The notes: generated by a model from the sequence alone, not told the origin. Shown: positions 3,152 to 61,895, counted from the first letter of the stretch. The stretch: DNA of 64,000 nucleotides from an uncultured Gemmatimonadales bacterium (GCA_963748035.1 CAVVHO010000006.1:144176-208175), one strand, 5' to 3'. A program made the numbers and translations.

Positions 3152-3162
3152 CCGAAGGGCTG

Positions 3163-3270
3163 TCGGCTATCAGCTATCGGCTATCGGCTGGGCCGCTTCT
3201 CGATCCTGGTCGCGCCCGAAGGCGGGATTCTTGAGTCCTAGCTGATAGCCGATAGCTGATAGCCGATAGC
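3163..3270. repeat. Inverted pair of heptamer arrays (CGGCTAT/CAGCTAT ... ATAGCCG/ATAGCTG) forming a predicted hairpin between tdk and coaE
   Basis: Left arm tcggctatcagctatcggctatcggct (3163-3189). Right arm agctgatagccgatagctgatagccgatagc (about 3240-3270) is its reverse complement with about 2 mismatches. The loop is about 50 nt. Confidence 0.9.
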
Positions 3271-7424: not shown

Positions 7425-7547
7425 ATTGCCGATTGTCGATTGCCGATTGCTAATTGAAGCGGAGACCCGGAGGGGCGTATGATCGTAGGGTGCGCCGAGA
7501 ACTCAACGCACGCTCAATCAGCAATCAACAATCAGCAATCGGCAATC
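7425..7547. repeat. Inverted pair of heptamer arrays (ATTGCCG/ATTGTCG ... CAATCAG/CAATCGG)
   Basis: attgccgattgtcgattgccgattgctaattga (7425-7457) is roughly the reverse complement of tcaatcagcaatcaacaatcagcaatcggcaat (7514-7547). It overlaps the annotated 5' end of the next ORF. Confidence 0.88.
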
Positions 7548-16823: not shown

Positions 16824-17213
16824 ATGCCTCGCCAGAACATCTCCAGCGGCACACCTTGGGAACCGATTGTCGGGTATTCACGAGCCGTCCGCGTTGGCAA
16901 CGTAGTTCACGTCTCCGGCACCACCGCGACCGGTCCCGACGGGACGATTGTGGGCATCGGGGATGTCTATGCCCAGGCGGTTCAGGCTCTCAAGAACGTC
17001 GCCGCAGCCCTCCGTCAGGCAGGCGCGAGCCTCGAGGACGTCGTGCGCACGCGAACCTACGTCACCAACATTAGCCAGTGGGAAGCCATCGGCCGTGCGC
17101 ATGGTGAAGTATTCCGCGACATCCGCCCCGCCGCTACGATGGTGGAAGTGGTGCGTCTCATCGACCCGGCGATGCTAGTGGAGATTGAAGCCGAGGCGAT
17201 CGTTGAGGAGTGA
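16824..17213 (+). CDS. RidA/YjgF family protein
   Basis: 129 aa. [18 protein letters not shown]...VRTRTYV...EIEAEA is typical of RidA-like proteins. The stop TGA is the first unit of the following heptamer array. Confidence 0.88.
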
Positions 17214-17340
17214 GAAGTAAGGAGTGAGGAGTAAGGAGTGAGAAGTAAGAAGTGAGAAGTGAGGAGTAAGGAGTGAGAGGTGTGGGCGATGAGAAGTGCG
17301 AAGGGCCGTAGCTTTCTCACTTCTCACTTCTCACCTCTCA
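17209..17340. repeat. Heptamer array (GTGAGAA/GTGAGGA/GTAAGGA, about 10 units) with an inverted partner (TTCTCAC x about 4)
   Basis: 17209-17283 is the direct array. 17314-17340 (ttctcacttctcacttctcacctctca) is complementary to it. Confidence 0.9.
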
Positions 17341-29038: not shown

Positions 29039-29172
29039 CTTAGGGTTTAGGGTTCAGGAATCACGGGCTGCGTTCAGCGTGCAGCGTTCAGGGTCGAGGG
29101 TTCGGAGTTGCGGGGCGAGGGTTCAGGGTCTTGCTGAACGCTGTACGCTGTACGCTCGACGCGGACCCTGAG
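29039..29172. repeat. Heptamer-type repeats (AGGGTTT/AGGGTTC, CAGCGTT) with partial inverted symmetry
   Basis: ttagggtttagggttcagg ... gcgttcagcgtgcagcgttcagggtc ... gctgaacgctgtacgctgtacgc ... gaccctgag. It overlaps the 3' end of the next ORF. Confidence 0.8.
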
Positions 29173-31065: not shown

Positions 31066-31163
31066 AGTGAGAAGTGAGAAGTGAGAAGTGAGAAGTGAGA
31101 AGTGGTTTCCCAGCTCCATCACACCTCACTTCTTACTTCTTACCTCTCACTTCTTACTCTCAC
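31066..31163. repeat. Inverted heptamer arrays (GTGAGAA x5 ... CTCACTT/CTTACTT); on the minus strand followed by a T8 tract
   Basis: The 31066-31104 direct array and the 31120-31163 array are complementary. ggaaacc (31051-57) and ggtttcc (31104-10) also pair. A8 at 31043-50 equals U8 on the minus-strand transcript, giving a terminator-like arrangement between the regulator gene and uppS. Confidence 0.85.
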
Positions 31164-38603: not shown

Positions 38604-39933
38604 CCAGTCCTTGGGGAATCCAGAGGCGAGCGCGCGTCCCCCGCCGATCCTCGCGGTTCTCCAGCTGCAGCGTACCACCATGTGCCTCGGCGATCTGGCG
38701 GGAGAGCGCGAGACCGATACCGGACCCGCCCTGCTTGGTGGTATAGAAAGGCACGAACAGATTCGCCGTATCGGCGATCCCGGGGCCAGCGTCTTCCACC
38801 AATAGTTCGACCCCGCTCGACACCACCCGCCAGGTGACCCGCACACCGCCGCCGGTCTCCGCCACAGCGTCCACGGCGTTCCGCAGCAGATTGATGAGCA
38901 ATTGGTCCAACTGATCACCGTCCGCTTCGAGCCTGCACGGCGGCCCTGCGACCACTGCCACCTCGGCGCGCCGCTCGAGTCCCACGACCCGTCGCACCCA
39001 AGCTTCGACTGGTACCGTACCTCGAACCGGCTTCGGCAGCCGAGCGAGCCGGGCGTACGCCGCCATGAACCGGCCCAACGAGTCCGCTCGCTGACCGATG
39101 ATGTCGAGCCCCTGGCGTAGATCCTGGCCGTCACCCGGTGCCACTTCGCCTCTATCCAGGATACTCCTGAGACTTCCGGCGAGTGAGCGGATCGGTGCCA
39201 GAGAGTTATTGATCTCGTGGGAGAGCACCCGAATGAGCCGTTGCCATGCCTGCCGTTCTTCGGCCTGCAGGGTTCGGCTGACATCGGTGAGGACGACCAG
39301 CGTGTGCGGTCGTCCATTCTGACGGAAGGTGTTGCGACGGAGTTCGAATCGACCGGCTTGGGCACCACTACGCTCGACCACTCGAGGCGATTCCCCCACG
39401 AGACAGTCGCCCAAGCCGAGCTCCGGGGCGGTTCGTCCGAGCAATCGTTCTCCGACCTGCCCCAACAGCCGCTCGCCGCCCCGATTCACCAGCCGGAGCC
39501 TGCCATCGGAGTCGAAAGTGAAAATGGCGGCGTCAATCTGCTCGAGAACGGTACGCAAGAGCGCCCCGGCCTCCAGCGCGCCCAGCCGCTGGCCTCGCAG
39601 CATCTCGGCCAGGGCATTGGCCTCGAGGTAAACGAGGCCGAGAGAATCGTCGCGGGCATCGGCACCGCGGGCGCGGAGGGAGTAGTCCCCTTCCCGCAGC
39701 GCGGACAGCACGTTGGAGAGAGTCTGAAGTGGACGTACCACCCGCTCGTGCAGGGCCATCAGCCCGAAACAGAACACACCGAGCACAAACAGCGTCACCG
39801 TCCACTGCGTCTTTTCGGTGAACGCTCCGCGCCAGAGCAGGAACAGCGACAACACCACCGCAGGAAGTGCCGTGGCGACGGCGATCAGGATAACGCGGCG
39901 GGGGTGGGAGGGGGGCATGGGAGAGAAGGCCAT
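38593..39933 (-). CDS. Membrane sensor histidine kinase (HAMP/PAS-HisKA-HATPase, NtrY/AtoS-like)
   Basis: 446 aa. Two N-terminal TM helices, H-box VLSHEINNSLAPI, N-box LLINLLRNAVDA, G-boxes EDAGPGI and GSGIGLALS. Confidence 0.9.
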   Translation of the reverse strand: MAFSPMPPSHPRRVILIAVATALPAVVLSLFLLWRGAFTEKTQWTVTLFVLGVFCFGLMALHERVVRPLQTLSNVLSALREGDYSLRARGADARDDSLGLVYLEANALAEMLRGQRLGALEAGALLRTVLEQIDAAIFTFDSDGRLRLVNRGGERLLGQVGERLLGRTAPELGLGDCLVGESPRVVERSGAQAGRFELRRNTFRQNGRPHTLVVLTDVSRTLQAEERQAWQRLIRVLSHEINNSLAPIRSLAGSLRSILDRGEVAPGDGQDLRQGLDIIGQRADSLGRFMAAYARLARLPKPVRGTVPVEAWVRRVVGLERRAEVAVVAGPPCRLEADGDQLDQLLINLLRNAVDAVAETGGGVRVTWRVVSSGVELLVEDAGPGIADTANLFVPFYTTKQGGSGIGLALSRQIAEAHGGTLQLENREDRRGTRARLWIPQGLGKK

Positions 39934-40052
39934 CGGCTATCGGCTATCAGCTATCGGCTATCAGCTATCAGTTGTTGGCTGTCGGCTGTCGGCTGTCAGC
40001 GAAGAATGTAGTCCAAGTCACAGAGACCGATAGCCGATAGCCGATAGCCGAT
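39932..40052. repeat. Inverted heptamer arrays (CGGCTAT/CAGCTAT, GGCTGTC ... ATAGCCG)
   Basis: The array begins at the kinase start codon (cat at 39931-33). The right arm ccgatagccgatagccgatagccgatcgc lies at about 40027-40055. Confidence 0.88.
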
Positions 40053-41467: not shown

Positions 41468-41583
41468 CGTCCGCCATCCGCCATCCGCCATCCGCCATCG
41501 GACCTAAAAAGTGCAGAGCTCATTGGCCTCCGGTGAGTTCGGACTCCTTGAGCCATTGCCCCGACGGCGGACGGCGGAAGGCG
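41468..41583. repeat. Inverted heptamer arrays (CCGCCAT x4 ... GACGGCG/GAAGGCG)
   Basis: cgtccgccatccgccatccgccatccgccatcgg (41468-41500) and cgacggcggacggcggaaggcg (41561-41583). Confidence 0.85.
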
Positions 41584-41585
41584 CA

Positions 41586-42032
41586 TCACTCCCGATCCTT
41601 CACCCTTCTCCGATCCGCTACCCGCCGCACCAGTTTGAGTCCGGACCAGGTCTCATCAACCGCGCACACCTTCACGTCCACCAGGCGATTGGCAAGAGCC
41701 AGTTCCCGTATCACACCCTCTGTCACGTCGGTCTCCAGCTTGGCTGCCTGCTTGGGCCAGGAGATCCAGACGGTGCCGTCGTCCTCGAGGGCGGCGGCGA
41801 TGGCCGGGAGCTTCTTGGCGAGGTCGGTCCGCCGAGTTACGAAACAGTGCACGAAGTCTGCCGACTTGGGGAGCCGAGTCGTCAGCGTCACTCCTCTCGG
41901 CAACGGCGTCACCACGCGCTCGTATGACCACGGGGCGCCAAGGACCACGACGCGCATCCCCGGTGCGAGACCGAGCTTCTGGGGAAGCGGGGTGGCGGAG
42001 TAGCCGGCCGAGCTGGAGCGCTGGGGAGGCAT
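41586..42032 (-). CDS. DUF3052-like protein
   Basis: 148 aa. The N-terminal SAGYSATPLPQKLGLAPGMRVVVLGAP and later WISWPKQ resemble the DUF3052 family as I remember it. Confidence 0.7.
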   Translation of the reverse strand: MPPQRSSSAGYSATPLPQKLGLAPGMRVVVLGAPWSYERVVTPLPRGVTLTTRLPKSADFVHCFVTRRTDLAKKLPAIAAALEDDGTVWISWPKQAAKLETDVTEGVIRELALANRLVDVKVCAVDETWSGLKLVRRVADRRRVKDRE

Positions 42033-42036
42033 GGAG

Positions 42037-42154
42037 TAGCCGTTAGCCGTTAGCCGTTAGCCGTTAGCCGTTAGCCGTTAGCCGTTAGCCGTTAGCCGTT
42101 AGCCGTTAGCCGTTAGCCGTTAGCCGTTAGCCGTTAGCCGTTAGCCGTTAGCCG
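42037..42154. repeat. Perfect tandem array of about 17 x TAGCCGT (GCCGTTA)
   Basis: I see no substitutions across 118 nt. It begins 5 nt from the start codon of the DUF3052-like gene. Confidence 0.95.
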
Positions 42155-42226
42155 AGGCTGGTTTGACGATTGGTTGAGTCAAGTCTTGCACTTTCGCTCT
42201 GCCTCAAACTGAGATCTGGACCAACT

Positions 42227-42589
42227 ATGCGCGACTTCAGAGAACTAAGAGTGTGGCAGGCTGGACATCAAATCGCTCTGGACATGTACAAGGTAACCGC
42301 AGCGTTTCCTCGGGCAGAAATCTACGGCATCACCTCTCAGATCCGACGGTCGGCCGTCTCCATCTCAGCAAACATCGCCGAAGGCTCCGGTCGTCACACG
42401 GACCCCGAGATGCGCCGATTCCTGATCATCGCGCACGCGTCAGCAACCGAACTAGAGTGCCTGATGGTGCTGGCAGGTGACCTGGGTTACCTCTCCGACC
42501 GGAATCGTATGCCCTTGCTCAGACAGGTTCAGGATCTGAGACGGATGCTGAACGGATTTATCCGCCGCCTACGTCGCACGCCGCAGTAG
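42227..42589 (+). CDS. Four-helix-bundle protein (23S rRNA intervening-sequence protein / Avd-like family)
   Basis: Starts at ATG 42227. MRDFRELRVWQAGHQIALDMYKVTAAFPRAEIYGITSQIRRSAVSISANIAEGSGR...ASATELECLMVLAGDLGYL is the hallmark pattern of this family. Confidence 0.87.
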   Translation: MRDFRELRVWQAGHQIALDMYKVTAAFPRAEIYGITSQIRRSAVSISANIAEGSGRHTDPEMRRFLIIAHASATELECLMVLAGDLGYLSDRNRMPLLRQVQDLRRMLNGFIRRLRRTPQ

Positions 42590-42615
42590 GTGAACGTAAA
42601 CCGTGCAGCTATGCC

Positions 42616-42737
42616 TACCGGCTATCGGCTAGCGGCCGCCCAAGGTTGCTTCCTGCCAAGGAACCACAGGCAACATGCTTCAAGCTAACGGCTAACGGCT
42701 AACGGCTAATGGCCAACTGCCAATTGGCTAACGGCCA
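42616..42737. repeat. Heptamer arrays complementary to the 42037-42154 array (CGGCTAT; TAACGGC/TAATGGC)
   Basis: ccggctatcggctagcggcc (42616-42637) and gctaacggctaacggctaacggctaatggccaactgccaattggctaacggcc (42684-42737). Confidence 0.88.
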
Positions 42738-42759: not shown

Positions 42760-43419
42760 TCATACCACCCACCCATCCTTCAACTGCACCACCCGATTCC
42801 CGACCCTCGCGTTCTCTTCCGAGTGCGTCACCTGAACGATCGTCGTCCCTTCCTTATTGAGGCGACTGAACAGTTCCATGATCTCCTTGCCCTGCGCAGA
42901 GTGGAGATTGCCGGTGGGCTCGTCGGCGAGGAGCAGCGGCGGGCGGGCGATAACCGCCCGCGCAACCGCCACCAGTTGCTGCTGGCCGCCGGAGAGCTGG
43001 CGGGGGTAGAGATCCTTCTTGCCCACGATGTGGAACCGGTCCAGCGTGTCGGCGACGAGGGCGGCGCGCTCCGATCCTTTCACGTCACGGTAGCTGAGCG
43101 GCACATCGAGATTCTCCGCCACGGTGAGATCGTCCAGCAGGTGGTACTGCTGAAAGACGAAGCCCACACTCTGCCGCGCGAGGTTGTTCCGCTCCTTCGG
43201 CTTGAGCGCATTGACTTCCTGGTCCCTGAGCCAGTACTGGCCGGTGTATTCCGCGTCGAGCATGCCGAGTATGGCGAGCAGGGTGGACTTGCCCGCGCCG
43301 GAAGGCCCCATGATCGTCACGAACTCACCTTGCTGGATGGTGAGATCGATTCGCCGCAGGATGAACGTGGGCGACGGTTTGGTGTCCAGGGACTTCTCGA
43401 GGTTCACGAGGCGGATCAA
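42760..43419 (-). CDS. ABC transporter ATP-binding protein (MacB/LolD/FtsE type)
   Basis: 219 aa. Walker [10 protein letters not shown], signature [14 protein letters not shown], Walker [12 protein letters not shown]. Confidence 0.9.
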
Positions 43420-43455: not shown

Positions 43456-43654
43456 GCCGTCAGCCTATAGCCTCTAGCCGTCAGCCGTCAGCCGTCAGCC
43501 GTTAGCCGTTAGCCGTTAGCCGTTAGCCGTTAGCCGTTAGCCGTTAGCCGTTAGCCGTTAGCCGCCCGGTGACGGTGGTTACGCAGAGGTCGCAAACGCA
43601 AGTGTTTTGCCTAATGGCTAACGGCTAATGGCTAACGGCTAGTGGCTAACGGCC
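43456..43654. repeat. Heptamer arrays (GCCGTCA x3, GCCGTTA x about 9) with an inverted partner (TAATGGC/TAACGGC)
   Basis: 43456-43565 is the direct array and 43610-43654 is complementary to it. Confidence 0.92.
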
Positions 43655-46130: not shown

Positions 46131-46312
46131 AGCCGTCCGCCGTCCACTAACCGTCCGCCATCCGCCGTCCACCAACCGCCGTCCGCCATCCGCCATCCGC
46201 CATCCGCCGTACGCCGTCCAATGCTGCCTGCTAAGACAGAGCTCTGTTACCTAGATCCGTCGGCGGTCGGCGGAAGGCGGTCGGCGGTCGGCGGAAGGCG
46301 GACGGCGGTTCG
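46131..46312. repeat. Inverted heptamer arrays (CCGTCCG/CCATCCG ... CGGCGGT/CGGAAGG)
   Basis: The 46131-46219 and 46257-46312 arrays are complementary. The loop contains the small palindrome acagagctctgt. Confidence 0.88.
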
Positions 46313-46329
46313 GCTACCGGCCATCAGCC

Positions 46330-48806: not shown

Positions 48807-48930
48807 GCCGTTAGCCGTTAGCCGTTAGCCGTTAGCCGCTAGCCGTTAGCCGTTAGCCGGCCAGCCACCAGTGACGGGTCAAGAAGTCAACAGGTTCCAG
48901 CTAATGGCTAATGGCTAATGGCTAATGGCC
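48807..48930. repeat. Inverted heptamer arrays (GCCGTTA x about 7 ... TAATGGC x4)
   Basis: gccgttagccgttagccgttagccgttagccgctagccgttagccgttagcc ... ctaatggctaatggctaatggctaatggcc. Confidence 0.92.
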
Positions 48931-49700: not shown

Positions 49701-49801
49701 GGGGAACGGGGAACAGGGAACGGAAAGGGCACGAATGCCGGAGGTACCGAGAAGGCCAACGACGTTAGCTCCCGTTCCCTGTTCCCTGTTCCCCGTTCCC
49801 C
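49701..49801. repeat. Inverted heptamer arrays (GGGAACG/GGGAACA ... CCGTTCC/CTGTTCC)
   Basis: ggggaacggggaacagggaacgg (49701-49725) and cccgttccctgttccctgttccccgttcccc (49771-49801). The array ends 2 nt from the adaptor gene stop. Confidence 0.9.
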
Positions 49802-49803
49802 GA

Positions 49804-51048: not shown

Positions 51049-51068
51049 GCGTTGGGCCTCTCGGGGAG

Positions 51069-51800
51069 CCGTTAGCCATTAGCCGTTAGCCATTAGCTAG
51101 AGGCATCCGGCGAGGGGCTCGTTCTAGGCCAGCGAACCTCCAGGTCCGCGGCTCACGGCTAGATGGCTAACGGCTAGATCGGCTAACGGCCGACGGCTAA
51201 CGGCAACCGCTATTGACCACGGCTGACGACTAGTCCTACAGGTAAGTTCCATGCCGCACCACTGCCACTCTGCACTCACCAACCGATGCCCCGGCCTGCA
51301 CTTACCCACCACGTTTCAGCGCTGCAACGCGCGAAGTGTGCGGTTATGGGATTCGCTGTCCCAGTTTCGGACGGGCGGACGGTCAGGACGGTCAAGACGG
51401 TCGCGACGGTCAAGACGGTCAAGACGGTCACGACGGTCAGACGGTCAGGCGGTCCGGCGGTCCAACGTGCCTCCCCCCGTTCTTACATCGTCCCCCAGCG
51501 AGATGTACCTTGGGCCCGGCCGCGGCCCTTCCAGCCATCAGTCATCAGCCGTCGTTGACAGCCGTTAGGGGACAGCCGTCAGCCGCCAGCCATCCGTGGC
51601 CAATTGGCCTATAGACGGATTGCGAGGCGGGAGGGTTGGAAGAGCCCGGCTACAGGCGGGAATGCCAATGACTGACGCTGCTCCTGACCGTTCCGACGCG
51701 ACGGTCGTGACGGCTAACGGCTGACCGCTAACGGCTGACGCTGACGGGCCTGCAAGCTGACGGCTGACGGCTGACGACGGCTAACGGCTAACGGCCAACC
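51069..51800. repeat. Repeat-dense gene-less spacer: GCCGTTA/GCCATTA, NACGGCT, a 9-mer array GACGGTCNN (51370-51472), and further GCCGT-type arrays
   Basis: Sub-arrays at 51069-51099, 51150-51208, 51370-51472, 51534-51600 and 51700-51800. Track ORFs here (for example 51251-51568, with RSRRSRRS) are translated repeat. Confidence 0.85.
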
Positions 51801-52965: not shown

Positions 52966-55716
52966 ATGCTGCTGGGGGCGGCGATGGTGGCACCCCTCGA
53001 AGGACAATCAGCGGGCGCCATAGCAGGCGTCGTGCGAGAAGCAGGAGCGAACGGCCAGCCGCTGCAGGGCGCGCGGGTGACGGCGGATGGCGGACGCTTC
53101 GTGACCACCACGGACGCCCATGGTTTCTATCGCATTCGCGAGGTCGTGGCCGGTTGGCACAGCGTCACAGCGGCCGCCATTGGCCAGCGTCCTCAGAACC
53201 GCGACAGCGTCCTCGTGCGCGCCGGCCAGACGACAACCCTCGACTTCGCCCTGACGTCGGATCCCGTGGGCCTGGAACCGATTGAGGTCATCGCCGGGCG
53301 GGTGGATTCGGTGCTGGATCCGCTCGCGGTGCAGGACCAGCAACGCTTCACCGCCGAAGAATTGCGGCGACTGCCCGTCTCCACCGTGGACGAGGCGATC
53401 GCGCTCTCGGGCGGCGCGGTCGGCGAGAGCTATCGCGGCGGACGGCTGGGTCAGCAGGCATTCATCCTCGATGGTCTGGGACTCAAGAATCAGCTCGACG
53501 CCTCCACCGGATCCCTTGGCATCCGCCTGCCACCCGATCTTCTTGCCGAGGCCTCGCTCATCACCAACGGGTTCTCGGCGCGCTATGGGCAGGCGGTGTC
53601 CGCCCTCGTGAACCTGTCGACCCGTGACGGCGGCGACCGCTGGGGCGGGCGTGTGGCCTACGAGACCGATCGCCCCCTTCCCGATGGGGCCGACTACGGC
53701 CTGGACCGCGCGGTCTTCAGCGTGGAAGGCCCGCTGCCCGCGGGGATCCGCGTCGTCGCCGTCGCCGATCTCTCCGGGCGCCTCGACGCCGATCCGGTGA
53801 AGGCGCCCGTCCCGTCCGACAGTCGCGATCCCCGTCATGACCGTCCGTGGGTCCTGCCTCACAACAGCGGCGAGCAGGCCGACCTCGGCACCAAGTTCAC
53901 CATTCCACTCGGCGCCCGGCAGACGCTCCGCATCCTCGGCGTGCATTCGGCGGACCAGCGCCAGCTCTTCGATCCGGCCTACAAGTACGACCCGGACTTT
54001 GGACCCGTGCAGCGCGTGACAGGCAACCTGCTCAACGCCCAGCTCCAGCGCACCTTCCCGGGCCCCGATATTACCGCGGACCTGCACTTCGGCTATTTCA
54101 GCCGGGACTTCGTGCGCGGCGCGGCGGTCGAGACGCCGGACTACAAGTTCGGCGCCTTCACCGGCGAGAAGATCCGGATCCAGGGAGAGGACATCGCCCG
54201 CAGCCAGGATACCGCGCTCGCACGCGCCGCTCTCCCCGGCTTCCTGGCCCCGACGTTCAGCGATCAGTCTCCGTGGGGTGTCCCGGCATTCTTTCTCAGC
54301 GGCGCTTCGCGCGGAGACCTTGCCTGGAATCACTTCCGCGAAGCCCGGGGCCGCCTCGACCTGAGCATCCCCGCCGGCAGGCAGAGCGATCTCTACTTCG
54401 GTGGCGAGTACTCGGCTCAGCACGTGCAGACCTTCCAGCGAGTGCTGGGCTACCTGCCCGCGAGCGACTCGGTCCCGGCGCCGGCGGCCTCCGATTTCAC
54501 ACCCTGGGCAGGCGCCCTCTACGCCGAGGTCCAGGGCCGGTCGAACGACCTGGCGGTCACCATCGGCATGCGCTACGACCAGTTCAGCGGGCGCAACGAT
54601 CTCAAGGGGAAGGCCGCCCACACCGCGCGCGCGCTGTCTCCCCGCTTCGCGGTCAGCACCGTCCTCAAGGGCGCGACCCTCGTCGCGAGCCTCGGCAAAT
54701 TCAGACAGGCTCCCGACTATCAGTACCTGGTGGACGCCGCATTCGACGACACCACCCGCACCGGTCGCTTCCGCCAGGGAAACCCGGGCCTGGGGTTCGA
54801 GGAATCCACCCAGTACGAATTCAGCCTGCGGCTCCGCCCGACCCAACTGACCAGCGTCCGCTTCAACGTCTACGTCCGGCGCCTCGATGGCCTGATCGCC
54901 TCCGTCCCGCTGGGCGCCGATCCTGACTCCAGCATCTTCGGGAACGCCGACGCCGGCTCGGTGAAGGGTGCGGAGGTAATTCTGGAACGGGAGTTTGCCC
55001 GCGGCTGGGGCGTGCGGGTGAGCTACAACCTGCAGGATGCGACGGCCCACTCCTCGGATGCGTTCTTCGTCCGGCGGGCGATCAGGATCGACCCGCTCAC
55101 CGGAGACACCATCATTCCGGCGAAGGTCGAGTTCCCGCTCGACTTCGATCGCCGCCACTCGCTCACCGCCATCGCGACGGGCACGGTGCCGGAGAGCTTC
55201 GGGCCCAGCCTGCTCGGCTCCAGGGTGCTCGGCGGAATCGAAGGCACCACGATCCTGCGCTACGCCTCCGGACTCCCCTACAGCCGCACCAATGCCGCGG
55301 GCGACTCGATCATCGGGCTCCCCAACGAGAGCCGGCTCCCTTCCAACTACACCGTCGACCTCCTGCTGCGACGTCCGCTGCACCTGGGCAAGTTCGGCGG
55401 GAGTCTCTACGTCGATGTCCGCAACCTGCTCAACCGCCAGAACCTCCTCGCGGTGCGCCGAGATACCGGCCAGCCAGGACTCAGCGACGCGGCGCTCCAG
55501 GCCCTGGCCCAAACCGCCTTCGCGGCCAATCCCGGTCCGATCCCCTTCGAGTCGCCGCGCTATCGGAGCTTTGCCGACCTGGATCACAACGGCCTGGTGG
55601 AGGGACAGAGCGAATTGCTGCCGCTCTATCTCGCCGCCGCGCGCGACGCGAACCAGCCGCTGTTTGTGTATGGGGCGCCGAGGTTGTTCAGGTTGGGCGT
55701 GGAGGTGGTGTTTTAG
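52966..55716 (+). CDS. TonB-dependent receptor with N-terminal carboxypeptidase-regulatory-like domain
   Basis: 916 aa. IAGVVRE...GARVTADGGRFVTTTDAHGFYRIREVVAGWHSVTAAAIG (CarboxypepD_reg), a plug region, and the C-terminal beta-barrel ending LGVEVVF. The true start may be ATG 52938 with a 1-nt frame disruption near 52962. Confidence 0.85.
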   Translation: MLLGAAMVAPLEGQSAGAIAGVVREAGANGQPLQGARVTADGGRFVTTTDAHGFYRIREVVAGWHSVTAAAIGQRPQNRDSVLVRAGQTTTLDFALTSDPVGLEPIEVIAGRVDSVLDPLAVQDQQRFTAEELRRLPVSTVDEAIALSGGAVGESYRGGRLGQQAFILDGLGLKNQLDASTGSLGIRLPPDLLAEASLITNGFSARYGQAVSALVNLSTRDGGDRWGGRVAYETDRPLPDGADYGLDRAVFSVEGPLPAGIRVVAVADLSGRLDADPVKAPVPSDSRDPRHDRPWVLPHNSGEQADLGTKFTIPLGARQTLRILGVHSADQRQLFDPAYKYDPDFGPVQRVTGNLLNAQLQRTFPGPDITADLHFGYFSRDFVRGAAVETPDYKFGAFTGEKIRIQGEDIARSQDTALARAALPGFLAPTFSDQSPWGVPAFFLSGASRGDLAWNHFREARGRLDLSIPAGRQSDLYFGGEYSAQHVQTFQRVLGYLPASDSVPAPAASDFTPWAGALYAEVQGRSNDLAVTIGMRYDQFSGRNDLKGKAAHTARALSPRFAVSTVLKGATLVASLGKFRQAPDYQYLVDAAFDDTTRTGRFRQGNPGLGFEESTQYEFSLRLRPTQLTSVRFNVYVRRLDGLIASVPLGADPDSSIFGNADAGSVKGAEVILEREFARGWGVRVSYNLQDATAHSSDAFFVRRAIRIDPLTGDTIIPAKVEFPLDFDRRHSLTAIATGTVPESFGPSLLGSRVLGGIEGTTILRYASGLPYSRTNAAGDSIIGLPNESRLPSNYTVDLLLRRPLHLGKFGGSLYVDVRNLLNRQNLLAVRRDTGQPGLSDAALQALAQTAFAANPGPIPFESPRYRSFADLDHNGLVEGQSELLPLYLAAARDANQPLFVYGAPRLFRLGVEVVF

Positions 55717-55782
55717 GGGACGGGCCGACGGGCGACGGGACGACGGGACGACGGGACGACGGGACGACGGGACGACGGGAGT
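55717..55782. repeat. Octamer array (GACGGGAC x about 6, preceded by GACGGGC variants)
   Basis: ggggacgggccgacgggcgacgggacgacgggacgacgggacgacgggacgacgggacgacggga. Confidence 0.9.
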
Positions 55783-55818
55783 AGGTGGTTGACGCTTGGT
55801 TGACGCAAGAGGGCTAAG

Positions 55819-56199
55819 TTGTCCGCCATGCGAGTCTTCGAACGCCTCGATGCATGGCAGCGCTGTCACGAACTCACGCTCGCGGTGTACCTGGTCACAC
55901 GCAATTGGTCCGACAGCGAGCGGTTCGGCCTGATCAGTCAGGTGCGGCGAGCTGCAGTTTCTGTTGAGTGCAACATCGCCGAAGGAGCAGCAAAGCGCGG
56001 TCCGGCCGAGTTTCGGCGCTACCTGGACATCGCGCTAGGGTCTCTCTCCGAGGTGGCTTGCTTGCTGCGCATCGCGGCGGATCTCAATTTGCATAGTCAG
56101 GTTGAATCCGAGCGGATCAATGAGATCCGTGAGAAGGCGAGCCAAGTCACCTGGCGCCTTTATCAATCGATGTCCAAGGCAAGGTCAACTACTTCCTAG
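55819..56199 (+). CDS. Four-helix-bundle protein (23S rRNA intervening-sequence protein / Avd-like family), second copy
   Basis: 126 aa. MRVFERLDAWQRCHELTLAVYLVTRNWSDSERFGLISQVRRAAVSVECNIAEGAAKRG...GSLSEVACLLRIAADLNL. The start may be ATG 55828. Confidence 0.87.
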   Translation: MSAMRVFERLDAWQRCHELTLAVYLVTRNWSDSERFGLISQVRRAAVSVECNIAEGAAKRGPAEFRRYLDIALGSLSEVACLLRIAADLNLHSQVESERINEIREKASQVTWRLYQSMSKARSTTS

Positions 56200-56247
56200 T
56201 AGGATCGATCGCTCCGGCGTCGCTTCGGTCCGCCACTCCTCGTACTT

Positions 56248-56302
56248 CCCCTCCCGTCCGTCATTTTCTTTTCCCGTGCGTCCCGTCGGCCCGTCGGACC
56301 GC
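56248..56302. repeat. Imperfect array complementary to 55717-55782 (CCCGTCC/CCCGTCG units)
   Basis: cccctcccgtccgtcattttcttttcccgtgcgtcccgtcggcccgtcggaccgcc. The reverse complement contains acgggccgacggg, identical to a stretch in the upstream array. Confidence 0.8.
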
Positions 56303-56340
56303 CTAGCGGCTCCCCCCAAGAAATGCTTAATTCCCCTCCC

Positions 56341-57142
56341 ATGTCCTCCGCCCCACTCCCAATCCGCAGGCGCTTCGGCGAGACCATGCGTTCCGACGCG
56401 TGGTGGGTGCAGCCGGTGGTCGTCTTCATCGTCCTGGCCGGCTTCCTGGGCTATGCCAACTGGGCGGCATGGCAGGGCGCCTACTACAGCTACGGCAACT
56501 ATCTCTCGCCCTTCTATTCCCCCGAACTCTGGGGGAAGTTCGCCGCACGCCTGGTTCGGGCCCCCGCCCGCGTGGTGGCCGTCGTGGTTGGTGTTCTCTC
56601 CGGCCCTGATCATCCTGCCGTTTCCCGGCCTCTTCCGGGTCACCTGCTACTACTATCGCGGCGCCTACTACAAGGCGTTCTGGGCGGACCCGCCGTCCTG
56701 TGCGGTCGGTGAGCCGCGCAAGCGCTATTGGGGCGAGGCGTCGTTCCCGCTCATCATGCAGAACATCCACCGCTATTTCCTGTACGCCGCGCTTTTCATT
56801 GTCGTGGCGCTGCTTATCGACGTCTACAAGGCGCTGTGGTTCACCGACCCCGTGACCGGACAGACATCCTTCGGGATTGGTGTGGGGACGCTGATACTCG
56901 CCGTGAACGCCACGCTGCTCGGCGGCTACACCCTCGGCTGCCACTCGCTGCGCCACATCATCGGCGGGTATCGCGACCGGCTGGCTGGCTCCCCGGTGAG
57001 AAAGCGGGCCTACGACTGCTCGAGCTGTCTCAACCGCGGGCACATGCGCTGGGCCTGGCTGAGTCTCTTCTCCGTCATGTTCGCCGACATCTACGTCCGC
57101 CTCTGCGCGATGGGCATCTGGACGGACTTCCGGCTTCTGTGA
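56341..57142 (+). pseudogene. sdhC: Succinate dehydrogenase/fumarate reductase cytochrome b subunit (b558-type), with a +1 frame disruption near 56531-56537
   Basis: The N-terminus is in track ORF 56323-56712 (MSSAPLPIRRRFGETMRSDAWWVQPVVVFIVLAGFLGYANWAAWQGAYYSYGNYLSPFYSPELWG). It continues in the frame of 56102-57142 (SSPHAWFGPPPAWWPSWLVFSPALIILPFPGLFRVTCYYYRGAYYKAFW...). The junction is at tgggggaagttcg. The gene is directly followed by sdhA and sdhB. It may be a sequencing error rather than a dead gene. Confidence 0.75.
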
Positions 57143-59867: not shown

Positions 59868-60458
59868 GTGACCCTCGAGCCCAAGCCGATCTCCAAGGAA
59901 GGCGTGCCCCTCGCCCTGCAGAAGGCGGAACGCTACCGGGTGATCAACGATCCCTCCTCCGCCGAAAGCATCTGCCTCGACATCCTCCAGATTGATCCCG
60001 ACAATCAGCAGGCGCTGGTGGCCCTGCTGCTCTCCATCACCGATCAATTCGGCGAGTCGCACGGCGATGGCCTGCGTCGCGCGAAGGAGCTGCTGCCGCG
60101 CCTGCGGGACAGCTACCGCCAGGCGTACTATGCCGGGATCATCGCCGAACGATTCGCGAAGGCGCAGCTCCGCCGCGGCGGACTCACCTCAGGGGAGATG
60201 GCGTACCATGGGTTTCACGAGGCGATGACCTGGTACGAGAAGGCGGAGGCCCAGCGTCCCGCCGGCAACGACGAGGCGATCCTCAGGTGGAACACCTGTG
60301 TCCGTATCCTGGCCCAGCAACCCGCACCTCCAACCTCGCGCGGACGAGTCGGTGGAGATGGGGCTGGAGTAGGCGACGTAGCGGCGGAGCAGTGCTCCGC
60401 CGTCGGTTGGAAGGATGGAAGGATGGAAGGATGGAAAGACGGAAGGATGGAAGGTTGA
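59868..60458 (+). CDS. Hypothetical protein (helical, TPR-like); 3' end uncertain
   Basis: 196-aa track ORF from GTG 59868. The last 50 or so codons run into the GGAAGGAT array. An alternative +1 frame gives a tidy end ...NPHLQPRADESVEMGLE with TAG at 60370-72. Confidence 0.55.
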   Translation: MTLEPKPISKEGVPLALQKAERYRVINDPSSAESICLDILQIDPDNQQALVALLLSITDQFGESHGDGLRRAKELLPRLRDSYRQAYYAGIIAERFAKAQLRRGGLTSGEMAYHGFHEAMTWYEKAEAQRPAGNDEAILRWNTCVRILAQQPAPPTSRGRVGGDGAGVGDVAAEQCSAVGWKDGRMEGWKDGRMEG

Positions 60459-60527
60459 GGATATGGAGGCCCAGTATTCTTCCGGCTCCCGTCCTCCCGT
60501 TTCCGCCCTCCCGTCTTTCCGTCCGTA
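60408..60527. repeat. Octamer array (GGAAGGAT x about 6) with an imperfect inverted partner
   Basis: ggaaggatggaaggatggaaggatggaaagacggaaggatggaagg (60408-60456) and ttccggctcccgtcctcccgtttccgccctcccgtctttccgtccgt (60480-60527). Confidence 0.85.
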
Positions 60528-60604: not shown

Positions 60605-60977
60605 GTTCCAACGGGCTTCCGACGATTTCCGACGGGCTTCCGCGCAGTTCCAACGGGGTTCCGGTGATTTCTGACGGGGTTCCGCGCGGTTCCGACGGGC
60701 TTCCGGGCATTTCCGACGGGCTTCCGGGCATTTCCGACGGGGTTCCGCGCAGTTCCGACGACCTTCCGCACATTTCCAACTGACTTCCGCGCATTTTCAA
60801 CGAGCTTCCGCGCATTTCCAACGAGCTTCCGCCCATTTCCGACGGGCTTCCGCCCGTTTCCAACGGACTTCCGCTCATTTCCGACAGGCTTCCGCGCAGT
60901 TCCAACGGGCTTCCACGCATTTCCAACGAGCTTCCGCGCATTTCCAACGGACTTCCGCGCATTTCCAACGCTTCCCG
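60605..60977. repeat. Tandem array of about 17.5 copies of a 21-nt unit (consensus approximately TTTCCAACGGGCTTCCGCGCA)
   Basis: I parsed 17 full units plus a partial one. Each unit is two related half-sites, TTCCnACGrGC and TTCCGCGCAk. There are no spacers. All six frames are open across it. Confidence 0.92.
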
Positions 60978-61756: not shown

Positions 61757-61895
61757 GCGGCCTGCGGGGTCGCTTCGCTCCTGCGGGCGCTCGCTGCGCG
61801 AGCGTGCGGGAACAGCGCGTAGTTCCCGCAGGGCGCCGCAGGCGCCCCCCGCAGGAGCGTAGCGACCCCGCACGAGCGAAGCGAGCCCGCCTCCC
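61757..61895. repeat. Compound GC-rich palindromic element (nested hairpins) between the DUF3224 gene and cydA
   Basis: The outer arms tgcggggtcgcttcgctcctgcgggcgc (61763-61790) and gcgccccccgcaggagcgtagcgaccccgca (61842-61872) are complementary. The inner hairpins are cgctcgc-tgc-gcgagcg, tgcgggaac-agcgcgta-gttcccgca and gcgcc-gca-ggcgc. Confidence 0.8.

Follow-up and report, generated by a model that had tools for sequence, protein, structure and literature searches.

A four-helix-bundle gene enclosed by inverted tandem-repeat arms in a Gemmatimonadales genome resembles ribosomal RNA intervening sequences and may be an exchangeable cassette

In a 64,000-nucleotide (nt) stretch of DNA from an uncultured Gemmatimonadales bacterium (GCA_963748035.1, CAVVHO010000006.1:144176-208175; hereafter the window, G+C content 65.5%), a gene for a small four-helix-bundle (4HB) protein of the S23p ('23S rRNA-intervening sequence protein') family lies between complementary arrays of short tandem repeats (positions 55717-56302). 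We found that this layout is conserved in the gene family, geometry and polarity included, and also between phyla, and comparisons among close relatives indicate that one site can hold cassettes differing in both sequence and orientation. The explanation we favour, with a probability of about 0.6, is a composite one: an S23p cassette that resembles an intervening sequence (IVS) of ribosomal RNA (rRNA) but resides outside rRNA, whose arms would allow it to be swapped or inverted and would form a processable stem when the element is read through.

The element lies, on the plus strand like all features of this locus, between a gene for a TonB-dependent receptor and sdhC. The 5' arm, a G-rich octamer array of GACGGGAC (55719..55780; 7.9 copies, 96% matches at period 8 in Tandem Repeats Finder (TRF)), begins 2 nt after the stop codon of the receptor gene. 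It is followed in the loop by a direct repeat of the form TTGA-N7-TTGA (GGTTGACGCTTGGTTGA, 55789..55803, 24 nt before the ATG), a TAAGTT box of the form (T/C)AnnTT (55816..55821, 6 nt from the ATG, an offset shared by aligned upstream regions) and an open reading frame (ORF) of 123 amino acids (55828..56199). The encoded protein matched PF05635 (E = 1.6e-29; 102.7 bits against a curated cut-off of 33.8), TIGR02436, 'four helix bundle protein' (E = 6.8e-28; 97.1 bits, cut-off 24), and the solved 4HB protein XCC0516 (PDB 2GSC, E = 1.1e-21); it has the N-I-A-E-G core, with N49, A51, E52 and G53 invariant in an alignment of 24 sequences. G+C content at third codon positions (GC3) was 0.67-0.68 in the 4HB genes of the window (0.68 here) compared with 0.85-0.89 in their neighbours. 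The 3' arm, an imperfect C-rich octamer array of CCCGTCGG (56273..56301; 3.5 copies, 85% at period 8), complements the 5' arm, and between the array and the stop codon lies a 73-nt spacer with degenerate C-rich relics (56200..56272; cggtccgcc, cctcccgtccgtc), recognized from the sequence and by comparison with a related contig described below; this distance is atypical, being about 6 nt in most relatives. An inverted-repeat search detected a perfect 14-nt pair between the arms (55719-55732 and 56282-56295; GACGGGCCGACGGG and CCCGTCGGCCCGTC) and further pairs of 18-23 nt at 87-94% in several registers, and in the minimum-free-energy (MFE) RNA fold of 55717-56302 the arrays pair and enclose the ORF (-278 kcal/mol, z = -4.8). 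An earlier note, made from this DNA alone, had described the array, the 4HB ORF and the complementary array between the receptor gene and sdhC, and had pointed to a stretch common to the upstream block and the reverse complement of the downstream block; TRF, the inverted repeats and the profile matches bear out both statements, the common stretch being the perfect 14-nt pair. Its ORF, 55819-56199, belongs to the family it named but starts later, since the alignment of homologues prefers the ATG at 55828 to the TTG at 55819.

The note had also named the outcome that would undo its argument, namely that array density in spacers makes two of two genes flanked by complementary arrays an expected result of chance. 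For each gene, both in the window and in homologous Gemmatimonadales loci, we scored how well its 250-nt upstream and downstream flanks complement each other locally; 80 such loci were fetched, and the 67 with both flanks make up, with the two 4HB loci of the window, a set of 69. Within the window the 4HB genes scored 41 and 76, against a median of 19 for the other 46 genes, and a score of at least 41 was reached by both 4HB genes but by only one of the 46 others (hypergeometric p = 0.0027). That sole exception, 42760-43419, is a point for chance; it is bracketed because its adjacent spacers hold one repeat family. Across the set, the median own-locus complementarity was 58, compared with 22 when upstream flanks were paired with the downstream flanks of other loci, and scores of at least 41 occurred at 63/69 4HB loci but at only 8/253 non-4HB genes of the same loci. 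One of these eight control positives is itself an additional 4HB gene (L013, 2072-2422), leaving 7/252 (Fisher's exact test, p = 2e-51). It is a divergent second copy, 580 nt upstream of the anchored one and with arms of its own ((GGTGAGC)n upstream, (GCTCACC)17 downstream), which indicates that cassettes can lie in tandem. A cross-locus control based on duplex energy did not discriminate, as any G-rich array will pair with any C-rich one. The locus at 55828 taken alone is only modestly convincing, since its score of 41 falls below the 95th percentile of the cross-locus complementarity control (52), which again favours chance; the strength of the association comes from the controls and the relatives. 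Taken together, these controls exclude chance, to which we give practically no weight.

The arrangement is regular throughout the set. TRF detected an upstream array at 69/69 loci and a downstream array at 68/69, with a period of 8 in 43 loci and of 9 in 15-16, matched on the two sides. G-rich arrays upstream combined with C-rich arrays downstream at 56 loci, and the reverse polarity occurred at none. The median distance is 64 nt (interquartile range (IQR) 51-78) from the end of the upstream array to the ATG, and 6 nt (IQR 2-16) from the stop codon to the start of the downstream array. Repeat units vary by locus (GACGGGAC, TAGCCGT, GGCGGTAC, GGATGGGCA, GGCGGACA, GACGGGAA, GGAAGGGC and others), and the arms are still complementary. 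TTGA-N7-TTGA was found between the 5' arm and the ATG at 23/69 loci, both window loci included, with a spacer of invariably 7 nt; in 19 loci the second TTGA box ends 22-25 nt from the ATG. The background rate of this motif is 0.001 per 90-nt interval, and the whole window holds 4 matches against 0.5 expected, two at the 4HB loci and two overlapping in one hairpin. The (T/C)AnnTT box stands 6-8 nt before the ATG in aligned upstream regions. TTGA-N7-TTGA is presumed to be a promoter or operator inside the loop, and the (T/C)AnnTT box could be a -10/-7 element of a leaderless or near-leaderless mRNA; because a strict sigma-70 promoter and terminator scan found no promoter in 55600-56450, we only infer the promoter function. 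For the strict G-first polarity, one possibility is that transcripts leaving the loop in either direction meet a C-rich, Rho-utilisation-like tract.

The same layout recurs in other phyla. A tblastn search against plasmids returned 27 records, mainly cyanobacterial, and most of the 14 plasmid loci that we inspected (13 cyanobacterial and one from Azospirillum) have a purine-rich array at the ATG and its pyrimidine-rich complement at the stop codon, with arm pairs such as (GGGAACA)/(CTGTTCC), (GGGTGTA)/(TACACCC), (GGTGACA)/(TGTCACC) and (AAGGGAA)/(TTCCCTT). Sense-orientation copies occupy operons on cyanobacterial plasmids (cas6-4HB-cas4 and cas10-4HB-cmr3), a Rubrivirga genome has a 4HB gene between mreB and mreC, and some sdhC-anchored metagenome loci show sdhA-4HB-sdhB with short inverted repeats; in all these operon copies (L182, L187 and L191 on cyanobacterial plasmids, L122-L140 and L197) the gene is co-oriented with the cas, sdh or mre operon. 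L182 differs in detail: its downstream array repeats the upstream one directly rather than in inverted form, and a complete short hairpin lies ahead of the gene. The Azospirillum locus (L186; A. lipoferum 4B plasmid AZO_p2, 14401-14745) is a classic IVS: the 4HB ORF lies within a 23S rRNA gene and is without a feature in the record's gene table, and the arms are imperfect repeats of 36 nt with 86% complementarity. Of the 18 loci outside the Gemmatimonadales set, 9 exceed the 95th percentile of the cross-locus control. The supposition that array, ORF and inverted array go together with the gene family is thus upheld by 68/69 Gemmatimonadales loci of fixed geometry and polarity, and by other phyla.

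How cassettes and sites relate can be read from orthologous loci. The nearest protein homologue of the 55828 ORF (P0002, 78% amino-acid identity) is encoded on a metagenome contig, L162, whose flanks are 96.2% (TonB-dependent receptor) and 98.0% (sdhC) identical to those of the window; the interior is 71% identical at the nucleotide level and inverted relative to the flanks. The breakpoints lie inside the arrays. The outermost 25-45 nt of each array go with the flanks: the outermost 5'-arm units (GACGGGCCGACGGGC) are common to the window and L162 in the breakpoint alignment, and the 3' arm at 56273..56301 is also present in L162, whereas the inner units change with the cassette (GGTCCGAC in L162, GACGGGAC in the window). 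Three more flips at orthologous sites were found among species representatives (L031 and L064; L038 and L042 each compared with L048), with proteins 49-57% identical. The next-closest homologues, P0008 and P0009, have unrelated surroundings, and both follow a G-rich array; the P0009 loci have a complementary C-rich array downstream, and on the P0008 contig only 39 nt remain beyond the stop codon. At non-orthologous sites, the k-mer similarity of the arrays tracks protein identity (Spearman correlation 0.22; 0/2000 permutations in a Mantel test). Comparison of arm similarity between orthologues with complementarity within a locus gave no clean signal of concerted evolution. The note had offered two explanations, a structural requirement for a stem around the ORF or a preference of the gene for landing in pre-existing hairpins. 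The family-wide architecture is real, but the sequence comparisons lend direct support to a third option, in which the arms would travel or recombine with the cassette and so yield swap and flip at one site.

In the composite explanation, the element is a cassette of about 0.5 kb in which a promoter-like TTGA-N7-TTGA and a PF05635 ORF occupy the loop of a long stem, the arms of the stem being complementary short tandem repeats, G-rich 5' and C-rich 3' of the gene. Being repetitive in themselves and, as a pair, alike on both strands, the arms may provide homology for recombination with other array-flanked cassettes. Such recombination would replace or invert the cassette, in either orientation, without a dedicated recombinase, and since a stem that is G-rich 5' and C-rich 3' is the same on both strands, the cassette could recombine either way with its polarity kept. 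A read-through transcript of either strand would form a long double-stranded RNA stem that RNase III may cut, as in rRNA IVSs, and cutting would make the insertion tolerable in operons, spacers and rRNA. Recombination via the arms, a stem acting as RNase III substrate or insulator, and the internal promoter are the parts of this scheme that we infer; for the protein, nucleic-acid binding, by analogy with its relative Avd, would be a guess.

Several observations weigh against the composite explanation. The most telling locus, L162, is a 2.7-kb metagenome contig in which a double mis-join through similar arrays could have mimicked the exchange, and the correlation between array k-mers and proteins could in part reflect host phylogeny. 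Mobility is not frequent, since sites are stably occupied across species: L003, L005, L006 and L008 are orthologous occupied sites in four species, and the other 4HB locus of the window, at 42037-42737, is matched by an occupied orthologue, L196. At 55828 itself the 3' arm is short and degraded and the flank score is low. Among the Gemmatimonadales copies the gene is convergent with the downstream gene in 48 cases and not in 17 (p = 1.5e-4), and in tandem spacers it is antisense to its neighbours in 23 cases versus 7 (p = 0.005), a bias unlike that of rRNA IVSs or the cyanobacterial operon copies. We detected no strand asymmetry in G-U pairing, with the coding strand more stable at 29 loci and the opposite strand at 40 (p = 0.45), and hence no evidence of selection for pairing in the RNA of one strand. 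Finally, with the promoter-like motif inside the loop, the mRNA made by the cassette itself would start past the 5' arm. These last three points speak against a role purely at the RNA level.

Two further accounts have to be weighed against the composite one. Hairpin arrays in spacers, terminator-like or made by slippage, might pre-exist, so that a bare promoter and ORF inserts preferentially into their loops and the arms are no part of the element. The window has about 13 gene-less short-loop hairpin arrays, and 350 kb of flanks at other loci contain at least ten such hairpins against one extra 4HB gene; the arms of the 42037-42737 locus are of the commonest local heptamer family, GCCGTTA, also present at 43456/43611, 48807/48900 and 51067/51150; in L005, L026 and L037 the 4HB arms and neighbouring short-loop hairpins are built from one unit; and in L091 a short-loop hairpin array lies shortly before sdhC. 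All of this suits insertion into ready-made loops. It fits poorly, however, with the arms of 23S rRNA IVSs, which are not rRNA sequence and so came or grew with the element, with the correlation of array unit and protein phylogeny, with inner units that change together with the cassette in L162, and with the tight stop-to-arm distance (median 6 nt). A vacant site is also missing: among 80 sdhC-anchored metagenome loci (67-80% amino-acid identity), which lack synteny with the TonB-dependent receptor, sdhC is nowhere preceded by a 4HB gene, and three closer SdhC relatives (82-90%) have other upstream neighbours, with no unfilled orthologous hairpin in either group. We regard insertion into pre-existing hairpins as unlikely, if still worth entertaining. 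An immobile, vertically inherited gene, regulated or insulated by arrays of its own that act, for instance, as Rho-utilisation-like C-rich tracts, would account for the strict polarity (56 versus 0), the bias towards convergent or antisense orientation, and orthologous sites that stay filled across species while their flanks fall to 65-80% identity. It would have to accommodate orientation flips and strong divergence at otherwise orthologous sites, nearest protein homologues in unrelated contexts, atypical GC3, and copies inside rRNA, cas operons, sdh operons and between mreB and mreC, and we consider it improbable.

Avd, the accessory protein of diversity-generating retroelements (DGRs), works with nucleic acids, and a hairpin or cruciform at the target takes part in DGR homing. 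The PF05635 family is related to Avd (PMC10053308), which raises the idea that the protein is a DGR accessory protein and the repeats are related to a template and variable region. Beyond the family relationship, what speaks for it is that the protein of the 42037-42737 locus, though not that of the 55828 locus, weakly matches PF22296 (bAvd, 18.5 bits) and NF033474 (DGR-Avd, 17.1 bits); the respective cut-offs, 40 and 80 bits, are far above these scores. Nor do the flanking repeats amount to a template/variable-region pair; they are short tandem arrays in inverted arrangement. With profile hidden Markov models below threshold and with sdhC and the TonB-dependent receptor gene, rather than a reverse transcriptase, immediately next to the ORF, we rejected a DGR, for which the odds are negligible.

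The other 4HB locus of the window (42037-42737, plus strand; the two are its only copies) has the same plan with another repeat family. Its 5' arm consists of 16.9 copies of TAGCCGT, 100% identical (42037..42154, TRF), followed by TTGA-N7-TTGA (TTGACGATTGGTTGA, 42163..42177, motif scan), an ORF of 120 amino acids (42227..42589; PF05635, E = 1.1e-33, and TIGR02436) and a 3' arm in two patches (42615..42735; CTACCGG-type at 42615-42636 and 7.3 copies of GCTAACG at 42684-42735), with 40-nt pairs between the arms at 90% complementarity. Folding, which the note had proposed for both loci, gave MFE structures in which the arrays pair around the ORF in each case (z = -9.1 here), and its search for a conserved non-coding end between array and ORF succeeded in that TTGA-N7-TTGA stands directly after the upstream array at both loci. 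The two proteins are 44% identical over 87 amino acids and the repeat units differ (a TAGCCGT 7-mer here, a GACGGGAC 8-mer at 55828), as had been noticed; each locus has orthologues of its own (L162 for 55828; L196 and L001 here). The note's case against a recent duplication is thereby strengthened, and at 44% amino-acid identity such a duplication of the two genes is ruled out. A near-identical contig, L001, has 10 repeat copies compared with 17 in the window, and the orthologue L196 (flanks 78-79% identical, protein 66%) has the same GCCGTTA/CGGCTAA arms in only 2-3 copies (about 2.5). Next to the 118-nt TAGCCGT array, a minus-strand gene (41586-42032, DUF3052-like) has its start codon 5 nt from the array, so its promoter or 5' untranslated region must lie within or beyond the array; this gene is missing from L196.

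Gene-less hairpins take up a large share of the intergenic spacers of the window. We counted about 13, each a 7- or 8-mer array, a unique loop of 23-64 nt and a complementary array (3158-3270, 7425-7547, 17204-17340, 29070-29156, 31066-31158, 39928-40052, 41470-41583, 43456-43653, 46154-46314, 48807-48929, 49701-49802, 51067-51212 and 60408-60524). They use about five unit families, and G-first and C-first arrays both occur, unlike at 4HB loci. The loop of the hairpin at 7425/7547 contains TTGA-N7-TTGA directly after the arm (7503-7517, minus strand; two overlapping matches, one of which comes from array units) and looks, anecdotally, like a 4HB cassette minus its ORF; ten short-loop hairpins of other genomes showed no remnant of the motif. 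In L091, from an unrelated lineage, the short-loop hairpin array has the units (GGTGCTCG)n / (CTTGAGCAC)n and precedes sdhC by some 150-250 nt, the position that the 4HB element occupies relative to sdhC in the window. Two other repeats stand apart: a 21-nt tandem repeat at 60606-60970 (17.4 copies, 82% identity; TTCCAACGGGCTTCCGCGCAT), far longer than the other arrays, and a long near-perfect palindrome at 61763-61872 with 51-nt arms, 78% complementary, an 8-nt loop and no short tandem units.

The genes that flank the 55828 element were assigned as follows. The upstream ORF (52966..55716) is a TonB-dependent receptor by its match to PF00593 (E = 2e-20), with a CarboxypepD_reg domain. Downstream, the names of homologues and the neighbours identify sdhC (56341..57142), followed by sdhA and sdhB. 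sdhC is split over two overlapping frames, with its N-terminus in the frame of ORF 56323-56712 and its C-terminus in that of ORF 56102-57142; the corresponding stretch of L162 is 98% identical with a 1-nt length difference, and the break probably reflects either a genuine frameshift or one miscalled base.

To our knowledge, the function of the S23p family and the reason for its home in rRNA have gone unexplained for about 30 years. If rRNA IVSs are a special case of a general design, a 4HB gene looped out by a stem of purine/pyrimidine tandem repeats, and if that design extends to spacers and to CRISPR-cas, sdh and mreBCD operons, the origin of rRNA IVSs becomes explicable and genes annotated only as 'four helix bundle protein' gain a structural context. 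Short tandem-repeat hairpins would then be recombination handles or RNA-processing sites. For annotation, the arms mark an easily recognized element boundary. A bolder generalization, which we offer as speculation more likely to fail than to hold, is a widespread class of recombinase-less mobile cassettes ('IVS-like elements'): in several phyla, PF05635 genes with inverted array arms would have settled in helices of rRNA, in spacers within operons and in hairpins between genes, and their arms would let them move, invert and displace each other; the abundant gene-less hairpin arrays of Gemmatimonadales would be ORF-less derivatives, and a pentameric Avd-like protein would bind the arms and so promote these events.

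Known systems share parts of this arrangement. Integron gene cassettes are likewise small single-gene modules with a hairpin-forming boundary that are exchangeable and occupy varied sites, but the present elements have no conserved attC-like core, two locus-specific arms in place of one site, and an apparent promoter of their own; at 55828 no integrase is among the immediate neighbours, the TonB-dependent receptor gene and sdhC (no systematic search for one was made in the window), and arm sequence is not conserved between loci. Miniature inverted-repeat transposable elements (MITEs) and doublets of repetitive extragenic palindromes (REPINs) are similarly intergenic, hairpin-forming, numerous and without a transposase of their own. 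They differ in that the arms here are locus-specific tandem arrays in place of one conserved terminal repeat family, no target-site duplication is evident, and a protein is encoded. With the Avd of DGRs the protein shares a homologous 4HB fold. Cyanobacterial short tandemly repeated repetitive (STRR) sequences are intergenic tandem heptamers of rapidly variable copy number in which some lineages are rich. Like these and other intergenic heptamer arrays (compare PMC4679880 and PMC4692102), the arms are intergenic tandem 7-mers, and on cyanobacterial plasmids they flank 4HB genes. STRR sequences, by contrast, have been characterized simply as repeats; our literature search found no report tying inverted STRR pairs to PF05635 genes, nor one of array-flanked PF05635 genes outside rRNA, with older subscription papers incompletely covered.

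The likeness goes furthest with the ORF-bearing IVSs in the 23S rRNA of Leptospira, Coxiella burnetii, Brucella and Xanthomonas, in which a PF05635 ORF also sits in the loop of a long inverted-repeat stem, the 5' arm is purine-rich with short tandem repeats of variable copy number, and atypical composition has led to suspicion of horizontal transfer. The Coxiella IVS, 428 nt in helix 45 with the S23p ORF in the loop of its stem, is excised by RNase III and carries two or three tandem GACAGAT heptamers in its 5' region, the number varying with the strain; its origin and mobility are stated to be unknown (PMC4990558). Unlike rRNA IVSs, the window element has the TonB-dependent receptor gene on one side and sdhC on the other (no RNA family was detected in the window with Rfam at gathering thresholds), has a promoter-like motif inside the loop and has long, regular arms of the 7-9-mer type, and its Gemmatimonadales relatives are often antisense and show swap and inversion at one site. 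With its enclosing inverted-repeat stem and S23p ORF in the loop, the 55828 element appears by analogy to work like an IVS without being one by definition, and the ORF-bearing 23S rRNA IVS is the closest known relative of the whole arrangement.

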